Source: Planctomycetota bacterium (GTDB lineage Bacteria; Planctomycetota; UBA8108; SXIK01). From it: a stretch of 64,000 nt of DNA. How positions within the stretch are numbered: position 1 is the stretch's first letter; each line of letters starts with the position of its first letter. The stretch lies in contig OZ244999.1 in assembly GCA_965223265.1 (NCBI GenBank), forward strand, positions 3,232,001 to 3,296,000. The letters are read 5' to 3'. A model generated the notes under the pieces. That model was not told where the DNA came from. It saw only the letters and a program-made list of their open reading frames with translations, and searched no databases. A program made the translations under genes and the position numbers. Shown here in pieces: positions 29,510-54,768 of this stretch.

Positions 29510-29720
29510 CTGCTTTGAGCCACCGCGGTGCGTGTTAACATGGCTTTACAAACTGCACCAATCATCTAGCTGCGCTTTACATTCGCGCGGCACCAGCGCT
29601 TCAGCCCGTAAGTCATAGTAGCAGAATTCTTTAACGAAAAGCTTCATGGGTGATGCGCCTCGCGTCGGTGACGCGTCGGTGACGCGTCAGAGCACAGCGC
29701 CAGGTTGCGCTCAGTGGGGA

Positions 29721-31799
29721 ATGATGGCGAAGACGAGAGCGACTCAGCAGTCCCGGGGACGCCCGAAGACGTACGCCAAACTGATCATCCAAGAGAACGG
29801 TGAACAGCGAGTGGTCGAGCTGGCCTCTCGGGTGACGACGGTCGGGCGTTCACAAGACAACTCGGTGGAAATCGACGACATCAATTCCTCGCGTCGGCAT
29901 TGTCAAATCGAGCGAACGTCGGGCGGGTATGAGATCGTCGACCTCAAGAGCAGAAACGGAACCTTGGTCAACGGCATCTTGGTTCTTCGCAAGGACCTTC
30001 GACCGGGAGACTGTATCGAGATTGGTCGCACGCAGATGTTCTTCGAGTACGTCTCCTCAGAGTATTCACAAGAGACGATCGATCTGACCACGGGTCACTT
30101 TCTTGAGCCGCTCGCGACGCTTGAGGACGACAGCCAGCTCGAGGTGCTGAAGAAGGAACGCGACATATTCCTCAAGCTTCTCGAGATCAATCGCAATCTG
30201 AACTCGAAGATCGTTCTCAGAGACTTGCTCGACCTGATGATCGACACGGTCATCGACGTCACTGCTGCGCAGCGCGGATTTCTTCTCTTGGTCGAGGGGA
30301 AAGAGATTCGCGTCACAGCGGCACGCAACATGGACAAGGAGAACATCAAGGACCCAGAGTTCAAGTTGAGCCATGCGATTGCGATGAGCGTACTCGATAC
30401 GGGGTCTGCGGTGCTCTCCGATGATGTTCTCGCTGATCCTCGGTTCGCGGATTTGCGTGAAGAGCGCCAGCTCAAGCTGCGCTCGACTTTGTGTGTGCCG
30501 GTCCGCATCGATGAACGATACATCGGAGCCATTTACGTCGACCACCGCTTCGACACGGGAGCGTTCAATGAGAATCATCGACGCTGGTTGGAGATTCTTG
30601 CGGACCAGGTCGCGGTGGCGATTCGGAATGCACAGATGTTTGAGGACCTGCGAGCCCGCACCAAGGCTCTGGAGGAGGCTCAATCTCGACTTGAGCGCGT
30701 CAACTTAGACCTCGAAGAGAAGGTCCTCTCGAAGAGCCTTCAGCTAGAAGATGCGATCAAGCTGATACCAAGAGACCGGCCCAAACGATTCAAGTACGAC
30801 TACTCGGCGATCGTCACTCGTAGCCCGAAGATGTACGAGGTGTTCGCTCTGCTCGACAAGATCATCGAGTCGAACGTGCCCGTCTTGGTCCTGGGCGAGA
30901 GCGGTACGGGCAAGGAGTTGGTCGCGCGAGCGATTCACGACAACGGCCTCCGCTCCAATCGTGAGTTTGTGAGCGAGAACTGTGCCGCGATTCCCGTGAA
31001 CCTACTTGAGAGTGAATTCTTCGGTTATGTCCGTGGCGCTTTCACTGGAGCGACGCGTGACAAGCGGGGTCTCTTTGAGGTCGCGCATGAAGGCACGCTC
31101 TTCCTTGACGAGATCGCCGACATGCCGCCGCCTATGCAGACGAAGCTTTTGCGGGCACTTCAAGAGGGAGAAATCCGGCGAGTCGGCGGCAAAGACATCA
31201 TCAAGGTCAACGTGCGCGTAATTTCCGCCACAAACAAGAACATCTACGACTTAGTGCATAAGCGCGAGTTTCGGGAGGATTTACTCTTCCGAATCAATGT
31301 CATCACGTTGAACCTTCCTCCTCTTCGTGATCGACGCGAAGACATTCCTTTGTTGATAGACTTCTTCCTCGATCGGATTGCTAAACGCTCAGGTGAGCCG
31401 AAAAAGACGTTGGATCGGGAGACGTTCCACCTGCTTTACCAATACGATTGGCCGGGGAATATTCGAGAGCTGGAGAATGAGATCGAACGCCTCTCGGCGT
31501 TAAGCAGCGGGCGCATCGAGTCGAACCTCCTCAGTAGTAATATTCAGGCGAAAGCTCAGGGGCGCTCGGTCTCGCTGACGGGGAAGTCGTTGAAAGATGT
31601 TGTCGCTCGAACGGTAGAAGACGTCGAGATGCACTTCATTCGAACGACCCTTATGGACGCAGAGTGGAAGAAGTCGAAGGCCGCCGAGGCCCTCGGAATC
31701 TCGCGTCCGACACTCGATGCCAAGATCGAAAAATACGGCATCAAGCGGGAGCAGGATGTAGGCTCTTCATCAGGGGAAGGCAGTCCCTCCAAGAACTAA
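29721..31799 (+). CDS. Sigma54-dependent activator with FHA-GAF-AAA+-Fis HTH architecture
   Basis: FHA (VGRS..SRRHC..SRNGT), GAF (LRSTLCVP..IGAIYVD), GESGTGKE, GAFTGA, FLDEI, WPGNIREL, AAEALGISRPTL. Confidence 0.95.
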   Translation: MMAKTRATQQSRGRPKTYAKLIIQENGEQRVVELASRVTTVGRSQDNSVEIDDINSSRRHCQIERTSGGYEIVDLKSRNGTLVNGILVLRKDLRPGDCIEIGRTQMFFEYVSSEYSQETIDLTTGHFLEPLATLEDDSQLEVLKKERDIFLKLLEINRNLNSKIVLRDLLDLMIDTVIDVTAAQRGFLLLVEGKEIRVTAARNMDKENIKDPEFKLSHAIAMSVLDTGSAVLSDDVLADPRFADLREERQLKLRSTLCVPVRIDERYIGAIYVDHRFDTGAFNENHRRWLEILADQVAVAIRNAQMFEDLRARTKALEEAQSRLERVNLDLEEKVLSKSLQLEDAIKLIPRDRPKRFKYDYSAIVTRSPKMYEVFALLDKIIESNVPVLVLGESGTGKELVARAIHDNGLRSNREFVSENCAAIPVNLLESEFFGYVRGAFTGATRDKRGLFEVAHEGTLFLDEIADMPPPMQTKLLRALQEGEIRRVGGKDIIKVNVRVISATNKNIYDLVHKREFREDLLFRINVITLNLPPLRDRREDIPLLIDFFLDRIAKRSGEPKKTLDRETFHLLYQYDWPGNIRELENEIERLSALSSGRIESNLLSSNIQAKAQGRSVSLTGKSLKDVVARTVEDVEMHFIRTTLMDAEWKKSKAAEALGISRPTLDAKIEKYGIKREQDVGSSSGEGSPSKN

Positions 31800-31842
31800 C
31801 AACCTGTGAGTCGCGATCGACGCAAAGCACGTACGGCGCAGA

Positions 31843-34455
31843 ATGGTTGCACGTTACTGGATCGAATTCAACGATGGTGGACGTGTCCGGCGCGTCGAGG
31901 TCGATGGGGACGAGCTGACGATTGGCCGCGACGAGACGAACGATATCGTTCTCGACGATCGACGCGCGTCGCGGCTTCATTGCAAATTGACCGTGACTGG
32001 CGATGGCCTCGTTTTAGAGGATTGCAAGAGCCGAAACGGTACAGTGTTCAAGGGCAGCATGGTCAATCTCAGCCCCATCGCGGTGGGCGACACGTTCCGT
32101 GTCGGAGACGTCACGTTCACTGTCGGTGAAACTCACGACGCGGGCGCTGCCGCCGACAGCGGCTCTCAAGCCGTCGACCCCGCGACCGCCGACACACTTG
32201 TTGAGCCCGGGTCGCGTCCTGAGGAACGTTGTGGCACAGGCGTGCCGGAACAGAAACCGTCGGAGCCACCACAGCTGGCGCCTGACCCGATTCGACTTGA
32301 GCCGATCGAGGCTGTTGATTCGGGTGTCATTGAGGTCTCCCACTTTCCATTTACCGTTGGCAGAAGGACTGGCAATGACTTGGTGCTTCGGGATCAGCGT
32401 GTGTCGTCACGTCACGCCCAGTTCGTCTACGCGGATGGCCTCTACTCCGTGGAGGACTTTAACAGCCGCAACGGCACGTTCGTCGATGACCTTCGCTCGC
32501 GAAGCGCGGTGCTCACTCCGGGGGTGATGATCCGTATCGGCTCCGCTCGCTATCGGGTTGAAGTTCCGGAGACGCCTCAGCTTCGACAGCGGCTTGAGTC
32601 CTTGTCCACACAGAGAGACTTCGAATCTCAACCTGTTGAAGAGAACCTGGGTCGAATCGAGCTGGATGCGTTCGATGGTGCCAGTCGACTTGAACACCCG
32701 CTGGTTGCTGTTGCTGTTGTGTGCGTGCTTGGGGCGCTCATGTTCTTTGCTGTCGATACGGCCCGTCGTGTGTTAGTGCGGCAGCCGATTGACCCTCCCG
32801 AGTCGGAGAACCTCATCGGGCAAGCATGGTCCTTCGAGGGTGGCGCGAGTGAAGAAGCGTCAGGTGCGGATTGGGAGCTCGTCGAAGGAGATCGCGGCCG
32901 ATTTGAGATCGTGGAGGCGATGGCTCAGTATCCAGGCAGGCACGCCCTGAAGTTGACCTCAACCGCGGAAGCTGGACGGTTGACCCGAGTTTCTCCGCGT
33001 GCGTTGATTTCTGTGCGGGCAGGGCAGCCGTACCGCCTGCGTGGGTTTGTAGCGAACCTTGGCTGTTTTGCGTCCGGAGTGGTCGTCGAGTGGCTTGAGC
33101 GCCGGGGCGAACGCGACGTCGTCCATAAACGTAGCTACTCTGACATCGCGCAAATGAGACGAGAGGAGTTGAACCTCGATCAGGTGGTCGACGCGCCGTC
33201 CAGGGTGACCCACGCGCGCGTCGCTTGTTTTGTAGCAGGGGGCGGCGCTGCAGTTTTCGATCGTATCGAATTCGCCGCGGCGTCCGACGCCGACGCCGCA
33301 GACGACGGTGGCGTGCCGAAATTCGTGTTCGGTCCAAGCGACGCACGGCAAAGAGTTCATTTGCGCCGCGGCTACGAGCTACAGTTCGTCGAGCAGGGAC
33401 TGCGTAGCTGGTTTGGGTTGGCGTCGCAGACCGCTGGGGACGGCTATGACATCGGGATGATTCCGTGGCGCATTCTTGATCGCGACGACGGGTATATGAC
33501 GATGGCGCTCAGATTCGCAGACCTGTCGCGCAGCCGCTGGGCAGACACCGTCGGGCGCCTTCAGGCCGGACAAGATGGTCTGCACGTGCGGGTGCAGCCT
33601 GCGGACGGCGATCGAGCAGACGATGGAAGCGAAATTTGTCTTTTTATCGAAACGCCGATCCACGACTTGAGGATTGAGTTTCCTGAGTACGGTCTGGTGA
33701 CAACGCTGAACAAAGACGATCCGTTGCCGCAGCGTTTTCACGAGTTGACGCTCGGCGCGGGCCGTCGAGAGCTTGTTTTCGCGAGCCACAACCCGTTGGT
33801 CGTCTCGAAGGTCGATCATCCACTGCGCCGCCGCCGACAACTTTTGATGATTCGGTTGGCTGAAGGGCGCACATTCGACATCTCTGCGTTGGTCAGCTCT
33901 CGTTTGGAATCTGTCGCCATCGCCCGACAGATCAACTCCGCGCGGCGCCATTATTTAGAGGGGCGTTTCGGAGAAGCGATCAGTCGGCTCAAGATGCTTC
34001 AGCAACGCTTTTCGAGCAGCGAGTCGGCCGGAGAAATCGAGGCGCAGATCGCGATTTGGGAGACCATCGCGGACGCTGCGTTCGAGCGGCTTCGAGACGA
34101 TCTCGAAGAGATGCGAGCTGCACCCCATGAGAGATGGTATCGCACCTTGACGGAGGGGGCCCGCGCATACGCAGCCGCGTACCGCAGTGCGGAATTCGCC
34201 GACCGTGGCGATGAAATACTCTCTGCGGTAGAGGAGCTGTGGCAAGAAGCCGAAAAGAAATCGCGCGCAACTCTAGTGGATCGATACTTTGACGTCGGCC
34301 GCAAGTTCTTTCGGGCTCATCGCATGTCGCTCGCGAGATTAGCGCTTCACCACGTGAAGCGATACACGAATGATGAAACGCTTCGGCGACAAGCTTCTGG
34401 GCTTCTTGACGGCATCGACCGAATCCGTACGCAAGAATCAAAGGGAGCTCGTTGA
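31843..34455 (+). CDS. Membrane protein with two FHA domains, a TM helix, a CBM-like beta-sandwich and a C-terminal helical/TPR-like region
   Basis: IGRD..ASRLHC..SRNGT and VGRR..VSSRHA..SRNGT; TM LVAVAVVCVLGALMFFAV; NLI..WSFEG...W...FDRIEF. Confidence 0.85.
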   Translation: MVARYWIEFNDGGRVRRVEVDGDELTIGRDETNDIVLDDRRASRLHCKLTVTGDGLVLEDCKSRNGTVFKGSMVNLSPIAVGDTFRVGDVTFTVGETHDAGAAADSGSQAVDPATADTLVEPGSRPEERCGTGVPEQKPSEPPQLAPDPIRLEPIEAVDSGVIEVSHFPFTVGRRTGNDLVLRDQRVSSRHAQFVYADGLYSVEDFNSRNGTFVDDLRSRSAVLTPGVMIRIGSARYRVEVPETPQLRQRLESLSTQRDFESQPVEENLGRIELDAFDGASRLEHPLVAVAVVCVLGALMFFAVDTARRVLVRQPIDPPESENLIGQAWSFEGGASEEASGADWELVEGDRGRFEIVEAMAQYPGRHALKLTSTAEAGRLTRVSPRALISVRAGQPYRLRGFVANLGCFASGVVVEWLERRGERDVVHKRSYSDIAQMRREELNLDQVVDAPSRVTHARVACFVAGGGAAVFDRIEFAAASDADAADDGGVPKFVFGPSDARQRVHLRRGYELQFVEQGLRSWFGLASQTAGDGYDIGMIPWRILDRDDGYMTMALRFADLSRSRWADTVGRLQAGQDGLHVRVQPADGDRADDGSEICLFIETPIHDLRIEFPEYGLVTTLNKDDPLPQRFHELTLGAGRRELVFASHNPLVVSKVDHPLRRRRQLLMIRLAEGRTFDISALVSSRLESVAIARQINSARRHYLEGRFGEAISRLKMLQQRFSSSESAGEIEAQIAIWETIADAAFERLRDDLEEMRAAPHERWYRTLTEGARAYAAAYRSAEFADRGDEILSAVEELWQEAEKKSRATLVDRYFDVGRKFFRAHRMSLARLALHHVKRYTNDETLRRQASGLLDGIDRIRTQESKGAR

Positions 34456-34464
34456 CACGATCGT

Positions 34465-36132
34465 ATGTTCGGTTTGCAATCTGCCGTTGGACTCAGCCTG
34501 GGTAACGAGAAGATCGACGCACTGGAACTTGTGCGTCAAGGACGCTCGGCGGTTGTTCGTCGCCTGTTGTCTATAGACTCGGATGAGTTGCGCGATGCAC
34601 ACGTGCCTCGCGACGACCTCTCTGAGGTTGTGCCGTATGTTAAACGTCGGATGCAGGCAGCTGGAATTCCGACTCGAAGGATCGTTCTTGGAATCGATCA
34701 GAACGTTTGCATGCTGCGGTACGCTCAGGTCGCTCCAGCGCCCACATGGCGCCTAGAGCTGATCATGAAGTTCGAGACAGACGAAATCATGGAGCGTATG
34801 GGTGAGCCGGTCGTCAGTAGTTACCGGTTGCTTTCGGTGCGAAGAAACGTGGACGATGACCAGGTTGTCTTGCTTTCGGTCGCGAAAGAGAATGAGCTTG
34901 CGAACCGCCTGAAGATCCTCGAGGCGAATGGCATGATGGTGAAGAACGTCGTGCCTCACGCACTCGCCCTCTTTCATGCCGCTGAGGTGTTTGGCGAAGC
35001 TGCAGATGAGGAGGCGGAGGACGACGATGTACGCCTCTACCTCGACATCGGCAAAGAGAGCATCGATACGGTTCTAACCGTCAACGAGCGCCTCGCGTTT
35101 GCGCGCAGTATGAGCTTCGGCGGCGCCGCTTTTACCAGGATCTTGGCGGACTCTCTGGAAATCGATGAGAGTCGCGCAGAACGTCTCAAGTGTGAGCGCG
35201 GAGGACTTGACACCAAGCATCCAAACGTACTGGAAGATACCGTTTCGCCGTTGCGAAACGCTGCGGGGCAGCTTTTGAATCTGATTCAGTCGACGATGAA
35301 AATGGCCGCTACACAGCACGGCCGGTCCTTGCAGCCTTTGAGTCATATCTTCCTGTCTGGCGGCGGTGCGCAGCTTCGCGGACTTGATGCGTTTTTGTCG
35401 CAGAGCATGAAAGTTTCGGTGAAGAGGTTCGCTCCGTTCGGCCACTCCGCCGGTGCTGCGGCACGCTCGGGACGGAATGCGGCAGTCGGCGCTGACTTCG
35501 ACGCCGCGGTGGCACTTGGACTTGCAGTCACAGGTCTTGATCACTCCGGAGAGGGGAGTTTCGTGCTCCTACCCCACGAGTACCGAAGGCGCCGTCTCTT
35601 CCGGGAACGGACGTTGTTTCTGTACTTGGCTGCAGCGTTTCTCGTTCTTCTTGTCGGGGCGCGATTTCTCCACGGTTTTTTGAGAGGCCGAGAGGCCAAC
35701 CATGTCTTGGCGGAAAACACCCGAGTTCACACAGAGTTGGTCGGCAAGAAACGAAGTCACGATGAAAATCTCCGGAAAGAATCGGCTGCTCGAGCTCGTC
35801 TCAACCGCATCCTCATCGAGAGTGAAGTCTCGGCGTTTCAGGGATTCGTGCTCGACTATCTTGGCCGTGAGTTGCCAGCTGAGGTTCAGGTAGAGTCGCT
35901 TGCGCTCGAAGAGCACGGCGTGCAGGTGAGCGAACGCGAGTACGTCCTGCGAGTCGCTGGACGGGTGAACAACGAACGACGACAGGCACTGAAAGTTCTG
36001 CGTCGGTTTCAGCAAGATTTGTTGGCATCCGAAAGGATCGGTGCGGTGGATATCACATCATCGACGCCGCTGCCGGGGGGTGCATGGTATGGATTCGAAG
36101 TCGAAATACGCCCGAACTATGTCCGCTACTGA
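34465..36132 (+). CDS. PilM-like actin-fold assembly protein fused to a PilN-like TM and periplasmic domain
   Basis: VGLSLG, LDIGKE, FARSMSFGG, AERLK, LSGGGAQLRGL, ALGLA; then LLPHEY, a TM helix, a coiled coil and LPAEVQVESL. Confidence 0.85.
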   Translation: MFGLQSAVGLSLGNEKIDALELVRQGRSAVVRRLLSIDSDELRDAHVPRDDLSEVVPYVKRRMQAAGIPTRRIVLGIDQNVCMLRYAQVAPAPTWRLELIMKFETDEIMERMGEPVVSSYRLLSVRRNVDDDQVVLLSVAKENELANRLKILEANGMMVKNVVPHALALFHAAEVFGEAADEEAEDDDVRLYLDIGKESIDTVLTVNERLAFARSMSFGGAAFTRILADSLEIDESRAERLKCERGGLDTKHPNVLEDTVSPLRNAAGQLLNLIQSTMKMAATQHGRSLQPLSHIFLSGGGAQLRGLDAFLSQSMKVSVKRFAPFGHSAGAAARSGRNAAVGADFDAAVALGLAVTGLDHSGEGSFVLLPHEYRRRRLFRERTLFLYLAAAFLVLLVGARFLHGFLRGREANHVLAENTRVHTELVGKKRSHDENLRKESAARARLNRILIESEVSAFQGFVLDYLGRELPAEVQVESLALEEHGVQVSEREYVLRVAGRVNNERRQALKVLRRFQQDLLASERIGAVDITSSTPLPGGAWYGFEVEIRPNYVRY

Positions 36133-36168
36133 CGGTTTGTCTCGGCCATTCGGCTGGCGACGCCGGGG

Positions 36169-36972
36169 ATGTTCCGCGCGATGAAGCTGCAGTTTGCTCA
36201 GATTTGGCACGAACACCGTCGTTTCTTGGTGGCCGTCGGTTGTGGAATGACCGTTTTTCTGGCGCTCAACTCGGGCGCTTCTCGTTATATCCGCAGTGCG
36301 GATCAGACGTTCCGCGAGGCGAGTCAGAAGGGCAAACAGAGTCGGATGTTGAAGAACGAACTGAAGCCTTACGCTGAGGTGGCAGCGAGACTGCAGTTGT
36401 ATGAAGATTTCGAATCTCGTCTGCGCAAAGAGATCGAACTGGCGCAAGATCTGCGACGGTTGGACCGCAAGGCGCTTTTGGTGCAGTTGACTGAAAAAAC
36501 GGAAGAGGTGTGGGCCGAAGCGCGTACGATCGCAAATCAACGTGGTGTCGCACTTCCCGAGCCGCTGAGTGAGCAAGACTATGGGTATGAGACAACGGAT
36601 GGGCACCAGGAGTTCATTCGTTACCATAGTTACCTCGGCGTCACGCGGCGGGCTCTTTTGGCGCTGCTCAACGGCGGGATGCGTTCGGTCGGTCCGCTCG
36701 AACTCGTATTTGAGGAGCTTGAACCGATTCATGGTGACCCTTCCGCCGCGCTACTCACTCAAACTGTCCATGTAGAAGTCTCCGGGAACTATCAAGCGTT
36801 CGTGTCGGTTCTCGAGTCGGTGCAGGAACCAGGCGGAGTCCTTCGGGCAAAGCTGCTGAATGTCGAGCGACCTGAAGACTCGGACGTCCTTTTGAACGGC
36901 GAGATCGAATTCTCCAATCTGCGATTGATCGAACTTGCGGGCGACACTCCTCGGGTTCGATTTGAAAAGTAG
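36169..36972 (+). CDS. PilO/GspM-like protein
   Basis: N-terminal TM helix, coiled coil, VEVSGNYQAFVSVLESV ferredoxin-like motif; position after pilMN. Confidence 0.65.
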   Translation: MFRAMKLQFAQIWHEHRRFLVAVGCGMTVFLALNSGASRYIRSADQTFREASQKGKQSRMLKNELKPYAEVAARLQLYEDFESRLRKEIELAQDLRRLDRKALLVQLTEKTEEVWAEARTIANQRGVALPEPLSEQDYGYETTDGHQEFIRYHSYLGVTRRALLALLNGGMRSVGPLELVFEELEPIHGDPSAALLTQTVHVEVSGNYQAFVSVLESVQEPGGVLRAKLLNVERPEDSDVLLNGEIEFSNLRLIELAGDTPRVRFEK

Positions 36973-37018
36973 CATTTGCATTGAAACGCTGCAGAGTCAC
37001 CTTTGTTAACGCTCGACG

Positions 37019-37387
37019 ATGATTAGATTGAACGCCGAAAAAACGGTTTGTTTGTTGGCATTCGCCGCACTAGTGGTAGGCGGGCAAGAGCTACTCGTCG
37101 GAGTGTGGGACGCGACTGAGAACGTTCCTGTCGTCAGCTCGGAGGTCGCCGCCGGACGTGCGAACGTCGTTTGGCGTGGATACCGGCGCTTTGAGAACGA
37201 TCGGCCGATCGCGCGTAGTCCGTTCACGTACGCCGAAGGATGGGATCTGCCGGAGGCTGTACCGATCGATCCACCGCTGCTACCGCCACTGAAACCTCGG
37301 TTGCCACCACTGTCGATGCAGCGAGGTGGTGGACGTTTCAATGCGAGTCACGAGGATGGATCGGAAGAAGCGGAGGCCGAGAAATGA
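37019..37387 (+). CDS. Small membrane-anchored Pro-rich protein (PilP/GspC-like by position)
   Basis: N-terminal hydrophobic segment, RSPF motif, Pro-rich tract; its stop overlaps the next ATG (ATGA). Confidence 0.55.
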   Translation: MIRLNAEKTVCLLAFAALVVGGQELLVGVWDATENVPVVSSEVAAGRANVVWRGYRRFENDRPIARSPFTYAEGWDLPEAVPIDPPLLPPLKPRLPPLSMQRGGGRFNASHEDGSEEAEAEK

Positions 37388-39867: not shown

Positions 39868-40591
39868 ACGTGGACGGTTCGATACGGCGCGACGTCGTCG
39901 GCGCGGAGGTCTCGGACGGCGTCAGACGGACCGAAGCGACGGAGGACTGCGGTGGCGTGGCTCCTACGGATTTACCCTCATCGAGATCCTCGTCGTCATC
40001 ACCATCATTTCGATCTTGATGGGACTTGCATTGGTAGGAATCAACGCTGCCCGTGGTCGCGGCGACGTCGCTGCGGTGCGCGCCGAGTTGCAGAGCTTTC
40101 GTGCTGCTGCGCAGCAATTTCGACAGGAGATGGGAGATTTTCCGCCGTCACAACTGCACGACGTCGGAAGCGAGTTGATCGGCAATGGTCTCAACGATGG
40201 AAACGAAAGCCTTTTTCTCTTTCTCATGAGTCGTCGACTCGGCGAGCCGCTCTTCGAGCCGCGCGAAGACCGCTGGGTGAACACCGACAGCGACACTTTC
40301 ACCGGCACCCAGCTGCCGAAGGTGCAGAAGGAAGTCCAACCCGTGCACTCGACCGAGAAGCGGCTCGAATATTCCGATCTGTGGGGCAATCCGTTCGTTT
40401 ACATTCACAATCGCGACTATGGCTCTTCATTCGACTACATGACGTCGGAGGGTGAAGTCTTCACGGTGCAGGCGCAGAAGAACCCACAGACGGGGACCTT
40501 TTACGCGCCGACCAGTTTTCAGCTCTGGTCCCTGGGCGGCGACGGCATCAACCAGAACGGTGGAGGAGACGACATCGTCAGTTGGGAATGA
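39854..40591 (+). CDS. Major pseudopilin, GspG-like
   Basis: G|FTLIEILVVITII class III signal, GDFP, DLWGNPFVY, FQLWSLGGDG....DDI C-terminus. Confidence 0.9.
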   Translation: MKGIERGRFDTARRRRRGGLGRRQTDRSDGGLRWRGSYGFTLIEILVVITIISILMGLALVGINAARGRGDVAAVRAELQSFRAAAQQFRQEMGDFPPSQLHDVGSELIGNGLNDGNESLFLFLMSRRLGEPLFEPREDRWVNTDSDTFTGTQLPKVQKEVQPVHSTEKRLEYSDLWGNPFVYIHNRDYGSSFDYMTSEGEVFTVQAQKNPQTGTFYAPTSFQLWSLGGDGINQNGGGDDIVSWE

Positions 40592-42090: not shown

Positions 42091-42092
42091 AG

Positions 42093-45000
42093 ATGGACGC
42101 GCGGCGCGATCACATCGATCACATCGAAAACATCGATCACAAGCTCCGCAGTGACCTTTCTGGTCGACGCAACGGGAAACGTCGCGGCGCGGCTCTGATT
42201 ATGGTACTCGTCGTGCTGACGATCCTTCTGCTCGTCGGCGCACCGTTCGTTTCGACGATGATCGTGCAGGACCGAGAGTCGCATCATTTTTCTGCGGCGG
42301 TGAAAGCACGACTAGCGGCTGAGGGCGCACGCAACCACGCCATCGCGCGACTACACGAGACAGTCTATGCGGTGGAGTGGGAAGAGGAAATCGCCAACAC
42401 CGAGGCGGTCGACACAACGGGAAGACGCAGGCGACTCGCCGCGCGCAGCAGTTCCCCTCGGCGTGAAGAGGTGCGTGGCAATCGCGAAGGGACGCGCCGC
42501 GACCGTCGTGAGAACTCGACGCGTCGACAGCGATCTCGGCGCAACAGGAAGGCGCCAACCTCGAACGTGCCCGCGCTCCCGGAGTACTTTCGTCGTTCCA
42601 CCGCTGGACCGTCGGCGCGCGAGTTCGACGATGGCGATGAGCTTGTAACGGCTCTCCCGGCTGAGGGGGCTGCCGAACGATCGTCGCAGAATGCGCCAGG
42701 TGTTTCCGAGACCGACTCTCCGACCGGTGAGTATCGGACCGCGACGGCGAACTCCCATGCGGGCTCGGCTTCTCACCTGCCGCTGTTCGGCGATGGCGTT
42801 ACGGCAACCGTTTCCGTCAGCGATGAGCAGGCGAAGTTGAACGTCAATACAGCACCTCCGCGAGCGATCGCGTCGCTTCTCGCAGTGGGCGAACTCGCCG
42901 AGCCGCTCGAACCCGCGGACACCGAGATTGTTCTTGTTGACGGCCGCCGCTTTCGCAGCGAACCCGTACGGCGGGGAGCACCGATCCGCGACGAAAAGGT
43001 CACAGGGGAACGGCAGAAAACTTCCGCGCGGCGCGCTCGACGGCTTCGGAGTGGCCTGGCTCGCATTGCCGGTGCCGTGATTCTCGTGGACCCGGAAGTC
43101 GGGCTGGAAGCCGTCACCTACCAGCGAAGAAAGGGCGACGTGCTGGCGGACTGCTTCCGCCACGCTTTTTTTACCCGCGCGACAGTAACGAAGAAGACGT
43201 TTCCGGCTGGCACTCTGGTCTATGACGTGCGCGGTTGGAAGCTCGGCTACCATCGCTTGTGGAATGAGCCGCTTGGCGGATTTCAACCCGCTCGCCTGAC
43301 GGTTTTTCGTTCCGTCGAAGCGCTGCGCGAGATCTCTAACTGGCAGCTGGCCTCGCTGTTTCTTGGACGCTTTCTCGATCAAGGCCTGAGCGTCGAGTTC
43401 TTGCGGAAGCACGGTGTTAGCTCTGCACAGCTCGCCGCAACCGGCCTCGAACCGTTCCTTTACTCCTCTGACCCGCCGCAGCCGAGTCGAGAGGACCGAG
43501 CCCGACTGCGGATCGCTGAGAGATCTTTGAGGCGCGTTCGATTCAGCTCCGATCTCGTCTCGAAGTTGCGACAGCAGCGCGGCGTCGCGGCTGTGGTCGA
43601 ACTTGCCTCCCGCCTTGAGGGCGCCACCAGAACAGACGTGCGCCGCGAGGAGTCGGAAGTGAAGCGGAGTCTCGGTAAGACTCGGCGGGTTGTTCAGTTT
43701 GACGGGCGATACGTGAGCGACGTCATCGACAATCTTGCGGAGGTCTACGCGAGCCCGGGTGTCGAGACTCTCTTGGCGGAGGACGTTGAGCGCATCCGCC
43801 CGCATGTGACCGTCTCATCCACGCTTCCTGCCCGTTGGTCGGAACCGCAAACTGTGCAAAACTCGGGCAAAAAGGGGGCAGGAAGGCGGAACGTCCGTCT
43901 GCCGTGGGGAGGCGAGTTCAACGGCGCCACCATCGTGCGGATCAGCAGTCGGAAGGACCCTGACCGTTTCTTTTTCAACGAGGTGAGTCGCGGCGGTGTC
44001 GGCGGCATCCGACTCGCGATGCCGCTGCGCACCCGCATCGAGGAGTTCGATACGACGGTCGCGGCGTTGCAGCGCCATCCCGTCAACGTCAATGCCGCAG
44101 CACCGGCGGTTCTGCGTGCGGTTTTCACCGGAGTGAGGGGCGCTGGCGAAGACCAGGTGGTGACCCCCTACGAGGCAGATCAATTGGTGCGGCGTGTCGT
44201 CGAGTCGCGGCCACTGACGGGGCACGCGGATTTCCTGGAACTGCTCGAAGAGGCAGCAGCAGACGAGATCGTGAGCAGTGACGACGTCGCAACTCTGTTC
44301 GCAAACGCCGTGCAGCCAACTCATCACATTCTTCGAGCATCAACTGTCGGTCTGTGCTATTCCACCGGTGATGTCTACACCATCGAGTCTCGCGCCGTCG
44401 TGCGCGCAGCGATGGGTGGGCGCGTAGGAGCGGCACAATTTCGCGAGATCGTCGAACCATCACCACCTCGACGCCTGAGCGTCGGTCTTGATACACAGAG
44501 AGATTTCGCTGACGGCATCTTTCTATACGATCAAGCAGTAGGTGTACGTATTGGAGAGAACCATCGTACGCACCTGATCGGTTTTCCTGGTGTGCGATCG
44601 CATCTCGTGCAGACGAGGCCTTTGCTTCTCCATCGCGCGCCGCGCTCTATTCCGGGAGGTGATCGGAGCGGACTTCGGTTGTTCCCGGCTTCAGCTTCCT
44701 TACCGCGGGGTGAAGTTGTCGGTGACGTTCTCCGTTTCGACGATACCCACGAAGGAATCGAGCTCGCACATGGCGAATCGTACCTCCTTGACTTTAGCCT
44801 TGGCGGAGGTGATGACGGTGAATTGATCGACCTCACAACGATTCCGGCGGCTGTGGAGTTTTGGTTTCGACTGCGAACGTTCCCCACGGCGCGTAGTCCC
44901 GACGGGCTTCTTGTTCTACTGCAAGGTGGCGCCGTGGGTGATGAGGGGCGCAATCGCATGCGTCTACTGTTCGATCCGTCCCGCTCCCTGGTGCTTCTAC

Positions 45001-48000
45001 GCCTTTGGGATGCGACTCTATTCGACCCGTCCATTCCCAACGACGACGTTTTAGGGCAGTATTTGGAGATCCGGGCACCGCGATCGATTGACCTCGCGAC
45101 GTGGTACCACGTTCGCGCCGTGTGGGATTCTGTCGCGCCTGGCGGCGCCCAGCTTTTTATCGATGGGGTCAGTTCCGGGACGACGAATCTCACCACCCGG
45201 CTGGCGCGTGCGCTGGCCCTGGATGGAGGCGGGGGTGGAGGGGCGTTCACCGTTGAAGATGGTGAGCGATTGCCGCGTGAGGGCGTGGTGCGAATTGGAT
45301 CGGAGCTTGTGGAGTATCGGCGCAGTGGGAATCAATTCGCCGTGCGCGTGCAGCCGGCGTCCTCGTGGCGACCGCCCGCACGGAAGCTTCGCGAGTTCCG
45401 TGAAGCTGGCGAAGTGCCCACTGACGACAGAGACGAGGACGCCGTCGGCGCAGCCAAGACTCGTGATGCACTGCCCGGCGTCGCTGCGTTGGGGGTCGCA
45501 GCGGCAGCGGCTGTGACGTCTCCGACCCAACCGATGCTCATGAGAGGTTCAGCGAATGGGCGCGGCACCATCGGCAGCGAACATCCGATCGGCAGCCAGG
45601 TGGCGCTGCATGGCTATTCGCTTCCGCTGGCGCCGTTGGCTTCTTTGCCGTCGACGCAGGGAGTCGTGCCACGTCTCAGCGCCAACTCCATCGCGGTTGG
45701 CCGCGGTGGACGCCGAACAGCAGACATTCTGCCCGCTTACGTGATTCCACAAGGCGACTACGATCTCTCCAATCTTCACATCTCCCGGGCGGACATCCCC
45801 GGAGAATTTTACATCGTGCCGCTTTTTTGGCGCGACACTGTTGAAGTGAGAGCGGGCGTTTCGAGCGTCGCGTTTCCAGCGCTCAAGGCGGCGGATTTTT
45901 TTCAGTCAAGTGGCATCTGCGCCTACGGCGGTTTCGAGTTCTTCTACGTCAAGGCAGCCGTGCCGCCCACTTACATCCGCGAATTGCGCAATCATCCTCT
46001 CGCGATCGACGTCGACAGCGGCGCGATTGACGGCTTGAAGGTTGTCGGTGTCTATACCCGTGATAGTGCTTCGGCCACTTCTGTCGACGAAGCGCGTGAG
46101 CTTTTGGACGAAGTGCAAGGCGTTGGTTTCCGTCTGCTGTATCCACTCACCCAGCTCTCTCTCGCCGTCGATGGCCCGATCGCCGAGCTCTACCCGCAGT
46201 CAGGCGTGCTCCAGGTTCGAGGCCGACCGGCTGAGTGGGATATCAGCGGCGGCGCGGGACCGCGTCCGAGTCTTCTCGGGCAGTCGATCTTCGACCATCA
46301 TCCAGACGATGTGGTCGAGTGGATCCGCTACACCCATGTCGTCGACGCGAGTGTCGGCGGGCAGCCGTTTCATCTCTTCGTGGCGCCGCCGACTTCGACC
46401 TCCCGTGAGGGCGGCAGAGATTTGCCGTTTCGCGGTTTCGAATCCGACCCGCTGCAGAGACGGACGTTGACCCTACCGATCGGTGAGGCTGTGACACAAG
46501 TCCTGGCGCTGGATGGGGCCGGTGCCGGCTACGGAGACTACGTCACACTCGTCGGCAACGATCCCACCAAGGTAGAGCCGCAAACGCTACGGATTCATAC
46601 GGTCCGGGAGCATCGCTCCGGGCTCTTTTTTGCGTCACTGGTCGCCGTCGACGGCAGCGGACGTGAGGTCTCAGGATCACGCGCGTCGCTCCGACACACC
46701 TACAGGATCGAAGACGAGGTGCGGATTGAAAAGTTCCCCAGCGGGCGCCTACCGGAACACGGGGTTGGCAAAGCTGTCTTTTTCGGCGGACTCGACGTCG
46801 CCGCCAGCCGCACATCTGTTACGCAAGACGGCGCACCGGCGCAGCAGAGCGAGTACCGTGACGAAACTCGTGGAACGGTGCTCGACGAGATCATTCGACT
46901 ACGTAATAGCGATGCTTTTACGACGCTCTCCGGGCAGCGTATGTCGACATCTGGCTTCGCCCTCGTACCACTGCGAGACGGTAACATCATCTTGCGGCAA
47001 AGCGGGGATCGGCATCACATCGCCGGGACGATCTCTGCCGACGAGGAGATCTCGGTGTCCAATCCGCTCGAAGTCATGTTGGTGGGGACGGAGAGCATTC
47101 TCTTTCCGTTCGCGCGCGGACGCCAAGAAGGTGTTTTGCGCGTCGGAGACGAGCTTTTCTACTTCGAAGCGGATGAGGCTGCTGAGTTGGCCTCGGCGAC
47201 GACCAACAACCCAAAACCTCGCAGCGCGAGCCGCGGTGAATGGCGTCAGCCGCTTCTTCGGCAGTCAGGCAATGAGCGCATTCAGGCCACCGTTCAGCGC
47301 GGCTTCCCGCGACGAGGCTTCGCGTCTCTCAGTGACGGATTGGGGCGCAGCGAAGTGTTCTACTACGGTGGACGATCGAGCAGTGGGTTTCGTCGCGTAC
47401 TCCGTGGACAGTTAGGTACCTCAGTTTTGGGTCGGTACGGCTCTCTGCGGCAGCAACACCCCATCCGCGGTGCCTCGCGACAAGTTCGACTGATCGGTCG
47501 TGGGCTTCTCGGCACGACGAGAGAAACCCATAGCGTCGGAGACCCCGTATACTCGGTGCCTTACTTGACGGGATCGCCGTTGGCCGGCCCGTTGACGGAA
47601 ACGGGAATCCCGGTCACAAACAGTGCCGTGTTTCGCTCGCCGGGGTACATTCTCGTCGATTCCGGACGGCCGTCGACGCCGTGGGAGATTATCGCCCACC
47701 TGGGTCCCTTCGGTGAGGGGATGTTACGCAGGCCACGTAGCGACGACGGACGCGGAATCCTTCGCGCGGCGTTCGGAACGCAGCCGCAGCCTGTCGGTCG
47801 TGGAACCTTCGCGTGGACACTTCCCTATCGCCATCCGGATCGATATCAGCCCGAGACCGCGAGCGAATCTCTGGCCTACTTTCAGAAGACTTTTCGAGTT
47901 TCTGGTGCGCGCTGGCGGGCTCTCGAGTGGACGCTGCGGCCGTGGTTCGGCGGTCGGGATCGCCGCGTCGATGTCGTCGCGCTTGTCCGGTTCGACGACG

Positions 48001-48281
48001 AGTCCAGTTGGGACGCAAAACCAACCAACAAGCCGGGTGGACTTTACTTCTTCGAAGTGGCCGATCGCAGACGAGGTGCGGACAAACCGGCACGGTTCGA
48101 ACTCGACCGCGAAGCCGACGAAGTCCACGTGCGTTTCTACTTTCGTTATCTCTCTGGTGCGTTCTCGCGAACCGGAGAAACCATCACAGATGACTGGAAA
48201 GAGACGCCAGTAATCGAGCGCGTGAACCTGGAGTACGAAAAAGGTGATGTGATCGTGCGTCACGAGGAGTTGCCGTTTTGA
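42093..48281 (+). CDS. Giant (about 2060 aa) GspK/PilX-like minor pseudopilin with LamG and repeated beta modules
   Basis: RRG|AALIMVLVVL (no Glu5, as in GspK/PilX), ARLAAEGA, DEQAKLNVNTA, second PVNVNAA, YTIESRA, LamG (VEFWFR, WYHVRAVWD, LFIDG). Confidence 0.85.
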   Translation: MDARRDHIDHIENIDHKLRSDLSGRRNGKRRGAALIMVLVVLTILLLVGAPFVSTMIVQDRESHHFSAAVKARLAAEGARNHAIARLHETVYAVEWEEEIANTEAVDTTGRRRRLAARSSSPRREEVRGNREGTRRDRRENSTRRQRSRRNRKAPTSNVPALPEYFRRSTAGPSAREFDDGDELVTALPAEGAAERSSQNAPGVSETDSPTGEYRTATANSHAGSASHLPLFGDGVTATVSVSDEQAKLNVNTAPPRAIASLLAVGELAEPLEPADTEIVLVDGRRFRSEPVRRGAPIRDEKVTGERQKTSARRARRLRSGLARIAGAVILVDPEVGLEAVTYQRRKGDVLADCFRHAFFTRATVTKKTFPAGTLVYDVRGWKLGYHRLWNEPLGGFQPARLTVFRSVEALREISNWQLASLFLGRFLDQGLSVEFLRKHGVSSAQLAATGLEPFLYSSDPPQPSREDRARLRIAERSLRRVRFSSDLVSKLRQQRGVAAVVELASRLEGATRTDVRREESEVKRSLGKTRRVVQFDGRYVSDVIDNLAEVYASPGVETLLAEDVERIRPHVTVSSTLPARWSEPQTVQNSGKKGAGRRNVRLPWGGEFNGATIVRISSRKDPDRFFFNEVSRGGVGGIRLAMPLRTRIEEFDTTVAALQRHPVNVNAAAPAVLRAVFTGVRGAGEDQVVTPYEADQLVRRVVESRPLTGHADFLELLEEAAADEIVSSDDVATLFANAVQPTHHILRASTVGLCYSTGDVYTIESRAVVRAAMGGRVGAAQFREIVEPSPPRRLSVGLDTQRDFADGIFLYDQAVGVRIGENHRTHLIGFPGVRSHLVQTRPLLLHRAPRSIPGGDRSGLRLFPASASLPRGEVVGDVLRFDDTHEGIELAHGESYLLDFSLGGGDDGELIDLTTIPAAVEFWFRLRTFPTARSPDGLLVLLQGGAVGDEGRNRMRLLFDPSRSLVLLRLWDATLFDPSIPNDDVLGQYLEIRAPRSIDLATWYHVRAVWDSVAPGGAQLFIDGVSSGTTNLTTRLARALALDGGGGGGAFTVEDGERLPREGVVRIGSELVEYRRSGNQFAVRVQPASSWRPPARKLREFREAGEVPTDDRDEDAVGAAKTRDALPGVAALGVAAAAAVTSPTQPMLMRGSANGRGTIGSEHPIGSQVALHGYSLPLAPLASLPSTQGVVPRLSANSIAVGRGGRRTADILPAYVIPQGDYDLSNLHISRADIPGEFYIVPLFWRDTVEVRAGVSSVAFPALKAADFFQSSGICAYGGFEFFYVKAAVPPTYIRELRNHPLAIDVDSGAIDGLKVVGVYTRDSASATSVDEARELLDEVQGVGFRLLYPLTQLSLAVDGPIAELYPQSGVLQVRGRPAEWDISGGAGPRPSLLGQSIFDHHPDDVVEWIRYTHVVDASVGGQPFHLFVAPPTSTSREGGRDLPFRGFESDPLQRRTLTLPIGEAVTQVLALDGAGAGYGDYVTLVGNDPTKVEPQTLRIHTVREHRSGLFFASLVAVDGSGREVSGSRASLRHTYRIEDEVRIEKFPSGRLPEHGVGKAVFFGGLDVAASRTSVTQDGAPAQQSEYRDETRGTVLDEIIRLRNSDAFTTLSGQRMSTSGFALVPLRDGNIILRQSGDRHHIAGTISADEEISVSNPLEVMLVGTESILFPFARGRQEGVLRVGDELFYFEADEAAELASATTNNPKPRSASRGEWRQPLLRQSGNERIQATVQRGFPRRGFASLSDGLGRSEVFYYGGRSSSGFRRVLRGQLGTSVLGRYGSLRQQHPIRGASRQVRLIGRGLLGTTRETHSVGDPVYSVPYLTGSPLAGPLTETGIPVTNSAVFRSPGYILVDSGRPSTPWEIIAHLGPFGEGMLRRPRSDDGRGILRAAFGTQPQPVGRGTFAWTLPYRHPDRYQPETASESLAYFQKTFRVSGARWRALEWTLRPWFGGRDRRVDVVALVRFDDESSWDAKPTNKPGGLYFFEVADRRRGADKPARFELDREADEVHVRFYFRYLSGAFSRTGETITDDWKETPVIERVNLEYEKGDVIVRHEELPF

Positions 48282-49594
48282 GCCTGCAAGTACACCGAGC
48301 CCGGTTACTTCGCACCGCAGAAGGCCGCCGCGGCTATACATTGATCGAGATGATGGTCGCGATCGGGTTGTTGGCGTTTTTCGGTAGCGGCCTGGTTGTT
48401 CTGCTGCGCCAATCGACTTCGCTGTGGCGATCCGCGGAGACCCGAGGACAAGCCTACGAGCAAGCGAGATCGCTGCTTGATCTCATTGCTTCGGATCTCC
48501 GCTCGGCCGTTGTGCGGGGGGGCGATGCGTATGACGACTCCTGGGTGCGGTTTGTCCTCGACAATGGAGTGAACGGGCAGACCCGACTGCGCTTCGTGCG
48601 CGCCATCGATGCAGAATTGAGTCAGCCGGGATTGCGTTACGCTGGGGAAATGGTCTCGACACGAGCTGCGGAGACGTTTCGTGGATACGTCAGAAAACTT
48701 CCGAAGGAACATGAAAAAGCGTCACGCTTGCGGTCTCCTTCCGGACTCATGGAGGTGTGTTATCTCACAGATCCGCGCTCCGATGTGCACGCGCTTTGGC
48801 GCGGCGTGAGAGCACCTATCGGCGGGCGCGACTCATTCTTCTTCGACGCCAACATTGAGAGTCCATCAACGAACAGGTCGGAACTGCGACGTCGCGGAAC
48901 GTCGCGGGACGTCACATCAGACACGTCGTCAGGGGCGCCAGAGAGTTCTGCTGTGAACAGAACTGCGTCACCGAGCGGAGCGCAAGACGAAAGCGTCGAT
49001 CCGGACCTTAGCAGTTTCGCTGCAGCGATTGCGGAGCACGTTTTGTACCTGGGCTTTCGCTGCGGCAACAGCACCACCACGGGGTGGCACGATGCACCAA
49101 CGAATTCACCGCCGACCGCACCTTCGGCCGTCTGGAACGCACATGCGAAGACCCGCGCGCGAACGCGTGGTGCTACAGATCGCAGAAGTGAAAGCGAAGA
49201 GAGTGCACCCCAGCATCGATTCCCGCAAGTTGTGGAAGTCACCGTCGTGATTGGCGAGCCCGAACAAACGCTTGGTCCTCGGCTCGCCAAGGCCCTCAGC
49301 ACGACCGATGTGGAGATTGAGCTCACGCGTCCTCTGCAACGATCCGACGACCGCGGTGATCCTTTCGTTCGTATCGGCAGTGAGTGGATTGCAGTCGAAG
49401 AGTTTCGTGGCAGCCGCCTGTTGATCGCAAGCGGCGGCCGCGGTGCACGGAAAACGGACGCCACCGATCACCCGCGCGGCGCGAGCGTGCATGCCGGGCG
49501 TCGCTTCAGGCGGTTCGTGTCGATCCCCGCAGCAAAGGGTCGATCCGTCGCAGAAGGCGAGGCGACACGACCAACCAGCGGGAGAAACAGATGA
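48278..49594 (+). CDS. Minor pilin (GspJ/PilW-like)
   Basis: G|YTLIEMMVAI, LDLIASDLRSA, EVCY, FPQVVEVTV; TTG start overlaps the previous stop. Confidence 0.85.
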   Translation: MSLQVHRARLLRTAEGRRGYTLIEMMVAIGLLAFFGSGLVVLLRQSTSLWRSAETRGQAYEQARSLLDLIASDLRSAVVRGGDAYDDSWVRFVLDNGVNGQTRLRFVRAIDAELSQPGLRYAGEMVSTRAAETFRGYVRKLPKEHEKASRLRSPSGLMEVCYLTDPRSDVHALWRGVRAPIGGRDSFFFDANIESPSTNRSELRRRGTSRDVTSDTSSGAPESSAVNRTASPSGAQDESVDPDLSSFAAAIAEHVLYLGFRCGNSTTTGWHDAPTNSPPTAPSAVWNAHAKTRARTRGATDRRSESEESAPQHRFPQVVEVTVVIGEPEQTLGPRLAKALSTTDVEIELTRPLQRSDDRGDPFVRIGSEWIAVEEFRGSRLLIASGGRGARKTDATDHPRGASVHAGRRFRRFVSIPAAKGRSVAEGEATRPTSGRNR

Positions 49595-50094
49595 GGCTCC
49601 CGGAGCTCTGGCGCGCGGCGGCGAGTCCTCTGACGTCCACGACGGACGCGGAGTGGATTCACTCTAGCCCTTACGCCATGAAGGTCCCATGCCGTCGTCG
49701 CGACGCGAATGCCGGTTTCTCGCTGACCGAAATCCTCATCGCGCTGTTGATTTTGGCGCTAGGCGCGGGCGGAGTGATCTCACTCTTCGTCAGCGCCTCG
49801 TCACTACACAGACGAGCTGTCGATCGTACTCATGCTGCACTGGTCGCCGAGGAAGTGGCTGAGACCGCACGTCTTGCCTTCACTCCGGAGACGAAACCGA
49901 ATGAGCTGATCGAGCGCGTGCGTGCGCGTTTGCCGCAGGTCATCGACACCTACACGTACGAGATCGAGGCGACGCCACTCGTTGGCGATGGCTGGGGAGA
50001 GGGGGAGGTCAGACTGCGCGTCGTCGTGCGCCGCGAAGGCAGTAGCGACGCGCGAGCCGAAACTTTCTCGACGATCCTGCTGCCGCGGTGGTAG
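49591..50094 (+). CDS. Minor pilin (GspI/PilV-like)
   Basis: G|FSLTEILIALLILALG; ATGA overlap with the previous gene (alternative start 49678). Confidence 0.85.
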   Translation: MRLPELWRAAASPLTSTTDAEWIHSSPYAMKVPCRRRDANAGFSLTEILIALLILALGAGGVISLFVSASSLHRRAVDRTHAALVAEEVAETARLAFTPETKPNELIERVRARLPQVIDTYTYEIEATPLVGDGWGEGEVRLRVVVRREGSSDARAETFSTILLPRW

Positions 50095-54547: not shown

Positions 54548-54768
54548 AGCTTTGGACACGGAGACCTCCGCGTCGAAGTGCTGCACGGCGAGCTCGATTC
54601 GCCAGGGAAGTGCGTGGACCCATCGAGCAGATGCTCTCCGTTGTGGTCCCTGGATTTACGACGACGAGACGACGACACGACCTTTCTCTACCGTTCGAGA
54701 CGGTGGCGCCAGGGTTCTTCGAGTACCTCCAGACTGAGAGGGGCCTTCAACCAACCACGGTTGTCCAC
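54514..54768 (+). pseudogene. Internal fragment of a RIT-type tyrosine recombinase
   Basis: EDLPAHVEPFV...EVRGPIEQML...PGFFEYLQTERGLQPTT resembles the N-terminal region of RIT-element integrases; no own start or catalytic domain. Confidence 0.55.

Follow-up and report, generated by a model that had tools for sequence, protein, structure and literature searches.

INTRODUCTION

Type IV filament machines are classified by a few well-studied types, among them the system for type II secretion (T2SS) and the type IVa pilus (T4aP). The pilin genes of the canonical T2SS are ordered G-H-I-J-K, and many T4aP systems scatter their motor, alignment-complex and minor-pilin genes over several loci. We describe here a cluster of 11 genes, A-B-C-D-E-F-G-H-K-J-I in their order, that is carried by a 64,000-nucleotide stretch of a Planctomycetota genome (hereafter the window: G000:C1:3232001-3296000, where G000 is the source genome, a single contig of 9.18 Mb, GenBank OZ244999.1). 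The cluster is real, conserved and unannotated; we read it as a type IV filament variant, derived from the T2SS, with T2SS-like pilins, a PilM-type platform and a giant cap pilin, and its motor-less and secretin-less state is conserved. As in many T4aP systems, the genes of the complete machine would be scattered over several loci.

Pilus-like clusters without a motor gene are already described in the Planctomycetes–Verrucomicrobia–Chlamydiae superphylum, namely Akkermansia MUL2 (Amuc_1098-1102), linked to mucin acquisition in a passage of PMC13174399, and the NCBIfam Verru_Chthon cassette, made up of a large protein and prepilins. Kil of Myxococcus is a type IV filament machine rich in FHA-domain proteins, whose over-representation is proposed in a passage of PMC8460266 to serve a signalling cascade. 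As regards planctomycetes themselves, dextran-binding pili-like fibres on crateriform structures are mentioned in part of one report (PMC5394234), and a passage of a 2025 review states that the mechanisms and players of planctomycetal macromolecule uptake are still unknown (PMC12673574).

RESULTS

Comparison with described systems

One of the closest known systems is the T2SS pseudopilus with its GspL/GspM pair, for which the GspK-I-J and XcpVWX complexes have been solved. The cluster resembles the T2SS in the GspG-type C-terminal motifs of G, in its five prepilins, one of which (K) lacks Glu5, in the GspK fold of K, and in the association of a bitopic actin-fold protein (C) with a small bitopic partner (D), the two being predicted to pair. 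It differs from the T2SS in that gspC, gspD, gspE, gspF and gspO are missing in or near the locus (about 50 loci), in the length of K (about sevenfold) and of H and J (about twofold), in two insertions in G, which misses Pfam T2SSG, in the failure of G, H, I and K to reach their NCBIfam cut-offs, in the addition of B and F, and in the pilin order G-H-K-J-I. By its defining set, the cluster is not a T2SS: the locus lacks secretin, ATPase and platform protein, and GspC was not found.

The likeness to T4aP (PilMNOP alignment subcomplex and minor-pilin/PilY1 priming complex) lies in C, which matches PilM_2 and solved PilM proteins, in the PilN-like/PilO-like pair and in the presence of a large adhesin-like protein at the cap. 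Unlike in T4aP, PilM and PilN are fused in C, PilQ and a recognisable PilP are lacking in the cluster, a pilin (GspK/PilX-like) serves as the large cap protein in place of a separate PilY1, and the major subunit is GspG-like, not PilA-like. Scores against the PVC families are low: C reaches 76.4 bits with the Amuc_1101 family NF045709 (cut-off 650), G 25 bits with Verru_Chthon D (TIGR02596, TIGR02599 cassette; cut-off 70) and J 27.3 bits with Verru_Chthon C (cut-off 256.5), the latter two through their N-terminus only. Moreover, the source genome already has a separate MUL2-like cluster with two secretins (L051/L052). As for Kil, it is of the Tad type (Flp pilin, CpaF ATPase) with its own ATPase and secretin, whereas the pilins studied here are of the T2SS type and no ATPase accompanies them.

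A set of five T2SS-like pilins

The 11 co-oriented genes of the original prediction, with the domain types then assigned, are indeed present at 29646-50094 on the + strand of the window, as judged from the list of open reading frames (ORFs) and from Pfam and NCBIfam scans (transmembrane (TM) segments were called from hydropathy). The genes are tightly packed, with 4-base overlaps at the E/F and K/J junctions and, the uncertain start of H excepted, gaps of 2-46 bases elsewhere. N-terminal extensions in their longest ORFs leave it uncertain where G, H and I begin.

G, H, J and I carry the N_methyl prepilin motif of Pfam, with the cleavage motifs G/FTLIE (G, residue 43 of the ORF), G/FTLAE (H), G/YTLIE (J) and G/FSLTE (I), where the slash marks the cleavage site. 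The corresponding motif of K is G/AALIM, the residue at +5 being Met instead of Glu.

The motifs DPWGNxYxY and LWSxGxDG...DDI are common to G and to three GspG proteins of the same genome that match Pfam T2SSG; relative to these three, G has two conserved insertions. G gives no Pfam T2SSG match, scores 45.2 bits with NCBIfam GspG (cut-off 88.85) and aligns with canonical GspG over its N-terminal 65 residues only (hhalign). A GspG phylogeny had been proposed as a check, and in our tree 20 cluster G sequences were split from canonical GspG with 96/98 support, on a branch of their own; the contrast consisted of four canonical GspG, all from the same phylum, and the motif filter retrieved G from 8/25 distant or named loci, 17 being omitted. 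G is probably the polymerising, GspG-class subunit.

H (17 orthologues in its alignment) combines N_methyl (4e-6) with Laminin_G_3 (4e-10) and matches NCBIfam GspH at 2.7e-7, below the cut-off. Within the genome, J is best matched by genes in the GspJ position of two canonical T2SS loci (E ~1e-4, N-terminus only); no further Pfam domain was found in J at E<=1, and its orthologues come after K in relatives. I matches NCBIfam PilV (1.8e-8) and GspI (3.2e-5), each below its cut-off, and its orthologues are the last gene of the cluster. The prepilin N-termini of J and I, as originally called, were confirmed, but the labels themselves, which rest on N-terminal matches, size and position, are tentative.

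A giant cap pilin

K measures 2062 residues in the public gene call (P0001) and 2109 as the longest ORF. It had been singled out as oversized, and this is a conserved trait: 11 complete orthologues range from 1890 to 2226 residues and are conserved over their whole length. The N-terminal GspK match (2e-7, 30.8 bits) falls below the NCBIfam cut-off of 130, and Pfam gives a weak Laminin_G_3 match (5.5e-5). We modelled residues 70-1150 of the K ORF with AlphaFold2 from a 12-sequence alignment (predicted local distance difference test (pLDDT) 63, predicted template-modelling score (pTM) 0.53). Among 48,161 chains compared with the model by VIA-align, the top two were GspK (3ci0_K) and XcpX (5vtm_X), both at Z 10.5, with 239/280 residues aligned at a root-mean-square deviation of 3.6 for the former and 217/259 for the latter. 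These matches cover model residues 39-771, with an inserted beta-barrel at 558-639, and are followed at 861-1011 by a LamG domain (Z 8.2 to agrin G2, 6-7 to neurexin LNS domains and sialidase carbohydrate-binding modules (CBMs)).

Foldseek with the whole K model returned no match at E<=0.001, and the K sequence matched none of the PDB sequences. Pfam at E<=1 on four pieces of K gave a weak T2SSK match (0.057) and LamG only, and profile comparison of the C-terminal half with the LamG pilin H gave no match (probability <1%). The ESM Atlas clusters closest to K are named 'hypothetical protein', LamG occurring in 19% of the members of one of them, and the Atlas held nothing usable for the C-terminal half. 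Among 1.84 billion representatives, relatives of the N-terminal half number 397 at E<=1e-30 and 709 at E<=1e-10; the best 150 relatives of K are mostly 1300-2200 residues long, and six of 15 word-indexed K homologues bear a source name, all 'hypothetical protein'. For K, the model and the sequence matches lend good support to a predicted GspK fold at about seven times the usual size, which holds inserted domains and to which a LamG domain and another 1000 or so residues are added.

The platform and the accessory proteins

C scores 68.2 bits with PilM_2 (PF11104; cut-off 27) and 91 with NCBIfam pilM (cut-off 133); it matches the solved PilM of Thermus (2ych, 1e-12) and of Myxococcus, and no GspL model of Pfam. 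D has no family in Pfam (also at E<=1) or NCBIfam, and its layout (TM segment, coiled coil, alpha/beta domain) is that of PilO. Residues 372-555 of C and 10-262 of D were predicted to pair with a score of 0.61 (best of three controls, 0.02), a partner pLDDT of at least 77 and at least 95% of contacts in agreement between runs, a mark reached by 116/157 solved complexes and 2/215 mismatched pairs. The predicted interface consists of a parallel coiled coil plus the core domains, like that of solved PilN/PilO-type pairs; since such solved pairs exist, the C-D result may reflect likeness to them. These models and matches lend good support to C as a PilM-PilN fusion equivalent to GspL and to D as the PilO/GspM equivalent, which together would form a bitopic platform.

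It had been considered peculiar that a GspG-type subunit is paired with a PilMNO-type complex instead of GspL/M. The pairing is seen, but the contrast is less odd than claimed, both because a canonical T2SS of the same genome has a PilM_2-type fusion at the GspL position (Table 1) and because the cluster pilins are T2SS-like throughout.

The two FHA domains of B are followed by a TM segment and about 565 periplasmic residues that include a long helical domain and in which Pfam finds no domain at E<=1. An AlphaFold2 model of B residues 280-870 (pLDDT 80.5, pTM 0.62) contains a beta-sandwich (model residues 39-202) that VIA-align places at Z 15.5 to CBM16, a porphyran-binding CBM and a phage tailspike domain, at Z 15.2 to a hyaluronan-binding module and at Z 13-15 to CBM70, CBM4 and CBM22. 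A hyaluronan-binding module is also found by Foldseek with the periplasmic model (E 1.5e-6). A second sandwich (218-405) resembles a beta-galactosidase C-terminal domain (Z 12.7). With the LamG domains of H and K, three components are thus predicted to have folds of a glycan-binding type.

E has no family and no PilP match in Pfam or NCBIfam; it is poorly conserved, being BLAST-detectable in only three relatives' loci, and its stop codon overlaps the likely start of F. F has TPR families (Pfam) after a signal-peptide-like segment that follows Met49, and ends in a beta-rich domain of about 230 residues; its orthologues hold the same position in relatives' loci. A GspC-type family was not found in any cluster protein (Pfam, NCBIfam), and B or F might stand in for GspC.

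Motor, channel and peptidase genes

As originally stated, the cluster has neither motor nor secretin. Whole-genome family searches found T2SSE (PF00437), T2SSF (PF00482), Secretin (PF00263) and Peptidase_A24 nowhere in the window, among 12 T2SSE and nine secretin matches, 14 T2SSF domain matches (seven genes) and two prepilin-peptidase places in the genome. The closest ATPase gene is about 370 kb distant. Four loci combine gspE, gspF and gspG with a secretin, in the locus or about 10 kb off (Pfam); the genome further has a pilT-pilB-pilC-pilS-pilR block beside a peptidase, a Tad locus, a separate pilM-secretin locus at 2.85 Mb and a PilM-like/TPR-secretin cluster with the layout of Akkermansia MUL2. 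The last (Table 1) resembles Amuc_1098-1102 in its arrangement and comprises a PilM-like protein of 661 residues, two unassigned proteins, a TPR-secretin of 1054 residues, an ExbB-like gene and a second secretin.

Two candidate motors were considered. An orphan GspE-GspE-GspF block without pilins is present in the source genome and in a relative (G023), with RNase R and RNase H genes beside gspF in both and a signal peptidase gene on the other side in the source genome. Tandem full-length ATPases occur in 4/5 genomes with the cluster and in 4/5 without it (8/10 in total), and the block was rejected as a dedicated motor, its co-occurrence with the cluster not being discriminating. The proposal of a shared motor encoded elsewhere is in keeping with this conserved block but gains nothing from co-variation. 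We also rejected the pilB-pilC-pilSR block as a linked motor: in the relative G001 it lies about 10 kb from the head of the cluster, from which it is separated by unrelated housekeeping genes, and in the source genome it is 400 kb away.

Two secretin genes of the source genome deserve mention. An orphan secretin (1205 residues, 921 in G023) is flanked by a CHAT-domain and a HEAT-repeat protein; its vicinity holds no other filament gene, and the arrangement is kept in both genomes. Another secretin ORF, of 4400 residues, has 29 Secretin_N stretches and one Secretin domain; it begins about 0.5 kb past the last gene of a gspE-F-G-H-..-K-L-like locus and about 10 kb from gspE. We know of no secretin of that length, this ORF being far longer.

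Conservation and distribution

A strong full-length orthologue of C (E<=1e-27) is present in 37/41 relatives' genomes. The order A-B-C-D-(E)-F-G-H-K-J-I, whose conservation had been put forward as a check, was found by tblastn in 11/11 fetched relatives (in one locus the contig ends before A is reached, and in a few a weakly conserved gene, be it D, F, J or I, stays below the threshold). It recurs in six named Planctomycetota contigs from metagenome-assembled genomes (L070-L075), the best named public contigs being all from Planctomycetota. Among 20 more distant G-centred loci, the backbone (FHA genes, C, G, and K and/or J in place) is recognisable in 16. Genes for an ATPase, platform protein, secretin or peptidase were absent by tblastn from 30 relatives' loci and the 20 distant loci, with the sole exception of L079, one of the 30, which is not this cluster.

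Across the phylum, a G profile gave near-full-length matches at E<=1e-25 in about 112/201 genomes (a hand count of rows), and matches to the N-terminal helix only in the remainder. A K profile matched 5/5 G-positive and 0/5 G-negative genomes, four of the latter being 99-100% complete. In verrucomicrobial and Kiritimatiellae loci, the likeness is confined to the pilin N-terminus, which leaves the Akkermansia MUL systems as an analogy only. Within the loci seen, the filament machine is specific to Planctomycetota. A full-text literature search, which did not extend to supplementary files, found no published description of the cluster.

The idea of a distinct subtype survives this comparison, given the conserved clade-specific gene order and the separate branch of G. 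By contrast, the further idea of an interchangeable module is not supported because the source genome holds no paralogue of D, E, F, H, K, J or I: the cluster is single-copy and appears to be vertically conserved.

The regulator A

Based on its domain content, A is an enhancer-binding protein of FHA-GAF-AAA+(sigma54)-HTH architecture, with Walker A at 417, GAFTGA at 464 and Walker B at 488 (PF00158, 224 bits). The source genome has two rpoN genes (two Sigma54_DBD matches). A orthologues (46-72% identity) head the cluster in 10/11 relatives, the eleventh locus being the one cut at a contig end. Scanning for TGGCAC-N5-TTGC with one mismatch gave no match; two in-cluster sigma54 promoter matches reach 10/12, one of them within the likely coding region of H. 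Scores of at least 8 were obtained upstream of A in 2/16 loci, of B in 5/15 and of G in 7/22, with a background of 0.24 per 250 nucleotides.

At the head of one T2SS locus, found in both the source genome and G023, stand a Ser/Thr kinase and an activator of FHA-GAF-sigma54 type that is paralogous to A (33% identity, 2e-91). Genes for Kelch-repeat proteins come next in this locus. The kinase-headed T2SS locus and the FHA-rich Kil of Myxococcus fit a control by Ser/Thr phosphorylation via the FHA domains of A and B.

Gene coordinates and flanks

The cluster genes and the other loci mentioned are listed in Table 1. Upstream of the cluster lie MlaE/F/D and S13 peptidase genes and downstream a 437-residue ORF, a holA-like gene, a phosphotransferase system EIIA gene and, past these, an integrase-RHS island in which G+C is lower, all unrelated to it. 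The 437-residue ORF follows the cluster directly and has a signal-like N-terminus; it has no Pfam or NCBIfam family and no match in any relative's locus, and it lies outside the conserved cluster. In the island, which was probably acquired, G+C drops from about 0.60 to 0.46-0.50; its four successive ORFs are the two of Table 1, one of 492 residues and an RHS-repeat ORF of at least 1752 residues that runs past the end of the window.

Table 1. Genes of the cluster (window coordinates) and other loci referred to in the text
Feature	Position	Strand	Assignment
A	29646..31799 (alternative start 29721, that of the original prediction)	+	FHA 2e-16, GAF_2 3e-20, Sigma54_activat 1e-66, HTH_8 (Pfam)
B	31843..34455	+	2x FHA (7e-31), TM 286-304, periplasmic CBM-like beta-sandwich, second beta-sandwich, helical domain
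C	34465..36132	+	PilM_2 8e-19, TM 379-397, C-terminal PilN-like periplasmic domain; GspL-equivalent fusion (predicted)
D	36169..36972	+	PilO/GspM-like bitopic protein; TM 19-37
E	37019..37387	+	small, membrane-anchored (TM 10-28), Pro-rich stretch
F	37384..39867 (likely start 37384; longest ORF from 37240)	+	exported TPR protein
G	39842..40591 (ATG at 39854)	+	probable GspG-class major pseudopilin; N_methyl 2e-8
H	40582..42090 (start 40582, 40588 or GTG 40762)	+	GspH-like minor pseudopilin with LamG
K	42093..48281 (longest ORF from 41952)	+	giant GspK-like cap pseudopilin, 2062 aa
J	48278..49594	+	438-aa minor pseudopilin, GspJ-position homologue (tentative); N_methyl 1e-5
I	49678..50094 (longest ORF from 49384)	+	138-aa minor pseudopilin, GspI/PilV-like (tentative); N_methyl 5e-6
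437-aa ORF	50200-51513		
Island	53741-64000		probably acquired
Integrase-like ORF	53741-54547		in the island
DUF6431 ORF	55135-55902	-	in the island
Remote K-like genes	G200:C7:1968351-1970843; G048:C1:4645166-4647412; G201:C1:3017984-3020656		
Orphan GspE-GspE-GspF	L058:9321-14244 (G000); L066:6505-11268 (G023)		no pilins
Orphan secretin	L062:1849-9762 (G000); L069:4839-10713 (G023)		
4400-aa secretin ORF	L054:78-13280 (G000:C1:2234078-2247280)		
MUL2-like cluster	L051:5544-L052:2412 (G000:C1:2153.5-2170.4 kb)		
PilM_2-type fusion of a canonical T2SS	L053:16828-18567		at the GspL position
Kinase-headed T2SS locus	L059:3335-20000 (G000); L067:138-18545 (G023)		

DISCUSSION

The explanation that we prefer, and that we hold to be about as probable as all else, is that the cluster encodes a T2SS-derived, lineage-specific type IV filament variant, comprising a platform and a full subunit set and probably binding glycans. 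The C/D platform would support the polymerisation of G, primed by a cap complex of K, J and I with the LamG-bearing H beneath, as in the solved GspK-I-J complex, while the ATPase, the platform protein, the prepilin peptidase and any secretin would be supplied from other loci. Because H and K bear LamG domains, and B has a sandwich resembling a CBM, we favour a filament binding polysaccharide or glycoconjugate, which may serve capture or adhesion, over one that acts purely as a secretion piston. Through their FHA domains, A and B may couple the machine to Ser/Thr-kinase signalling, A presumably acting as a sigma54-dependent activator on some target.

Several observations weigh against this explanation. 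A shared fold does not prove function, and contacts between proteins are likewise mediated by LamG and CBM-like sandwiches. Confidence in the K model is no more than moderate (pLDDT 63), the C-terminal ~900 residues of K have no fold match (Pfam, profile comparison, ESM Atlas), and the C-terminal domain of F has neither a Pfam match at E<=1 nor a profile match to the LamG of H (probability <1%). With no secretin linked to the cluster in the 30 and 20 related loci searched by tblastn, the filament might never leave the periplasm, and the tandem orphan ATPases do not co-vary with the cluster. Across orthologous loci, no -24/-12 sigma54 promoter is enriched upstream of A, B or G. Finally, the cluster is not universal: four of the 41 relatives (G002, which is 96% complete, G003, G013 and G019) have paralogue-level C matches only, and in three distant genomes (G200, G048 and G201) the distance between the K-like and the G-like gene ranges from hundreds of kb to several Mb; in some families, therefore, the cluster is split.

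An ordinary protein-secreting T2SS, with its pseudopilus and GspL/M genes parted from gspD/E/F and with the giant K and the lectin-like domains recognising glycosylated or large cargo or plugging the secretin, would account for the T2SS-like character of all five pilins (the GspG motifs of G, the GspK fold of K), for the kinship of J with GspJ-position genes, for the position of A's nearest paralogue at the head of a complete T2SS locus and for the orphan GspE-GspE-GspF and orphan secretin, which are syntenic in G000 and G023. We nevertheless regard it as somewhat unlikely: neither GspC nor a secretin was found across the ~50 loci, the genome already has four loci with gspD, gspE, gspF and gspG (the secretin being at most ~10 kb off), B and F are without counterpart in the T2SS, the scores of G and K are far under the curated GspG and GspK cut-offs, and the distribution of the orphan ATPases does not follow that of the cluster.

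The missing secretin linkage would suit instead a periplasm-spanning envelope structure, for instance a part of the crateriform structures, which extend from the outer membrane to the cytoplasmic membrane by cryo-electron tomography, with B and F as scaffolds and a short pseudopilus as stem. B spans the inner membrane with its long helical domain on the periplasmic side, F is a large exported TPR protein, and the uptake players are still unknown according to the passage of the 2025 review (PMC12673574). Against it, the 5/5 tested G-negative genomes also lack K, four of them being nearly or fully complete (99-100%). We hold this explanation to be decidedly improbable. A DNA-uptake (competence) pseudopilus is very improbable indeed. 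The helical domain of K does give matches to ComEA-type helix-hairpin-helix domains (Z 6.0-6.2), and competence pseudopili likewise rely on motors encoded elsewhere; but a domain of this kind belongs to the canonical GspK fold, such Z values are classed as common by the tool, the cluster contains no ComEA or ComEC gene, and its extra domains are of lectin or CBM type, not DNA-binding.

A bolder version of the glycan-binding filament can be envisaged, in which the cluster builds the polysaccharide-capturing fibres of planctomycetes: a retractable GspG-type filament with a 220-kDa lectin-bearing cap would catch high-molecular-weight glycans outside the cell and draw them back into the enlarged periplasm, and the CBM-like domain of B would sense the cargo and signal to A by phospho-threonine. 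We consider this version quite unlikely; if true, it would provide a genetic handle on planctomycetal macromolecule uptake.

Whatever its cargo, the cluster adds a coherent and old variant to a class of machines known from few well-studied types. It shows the reach of GspK cap elaboration, to about 2000 residues conserved end to end, and brings in two components that are seen in neither the T2SS nor the T4aP: a large TPR protein and a transmembrane FHA protein whose periplasmic domain is CBM-like. It is also a natural case in which to ask how a module of pilins and platform comes by a motor and a channel whose genes lie elsewhere. If its lectin-type domains do bind glycans, the cluster would be a candidate explanation for how planctomycetes capture polymers or adhere.

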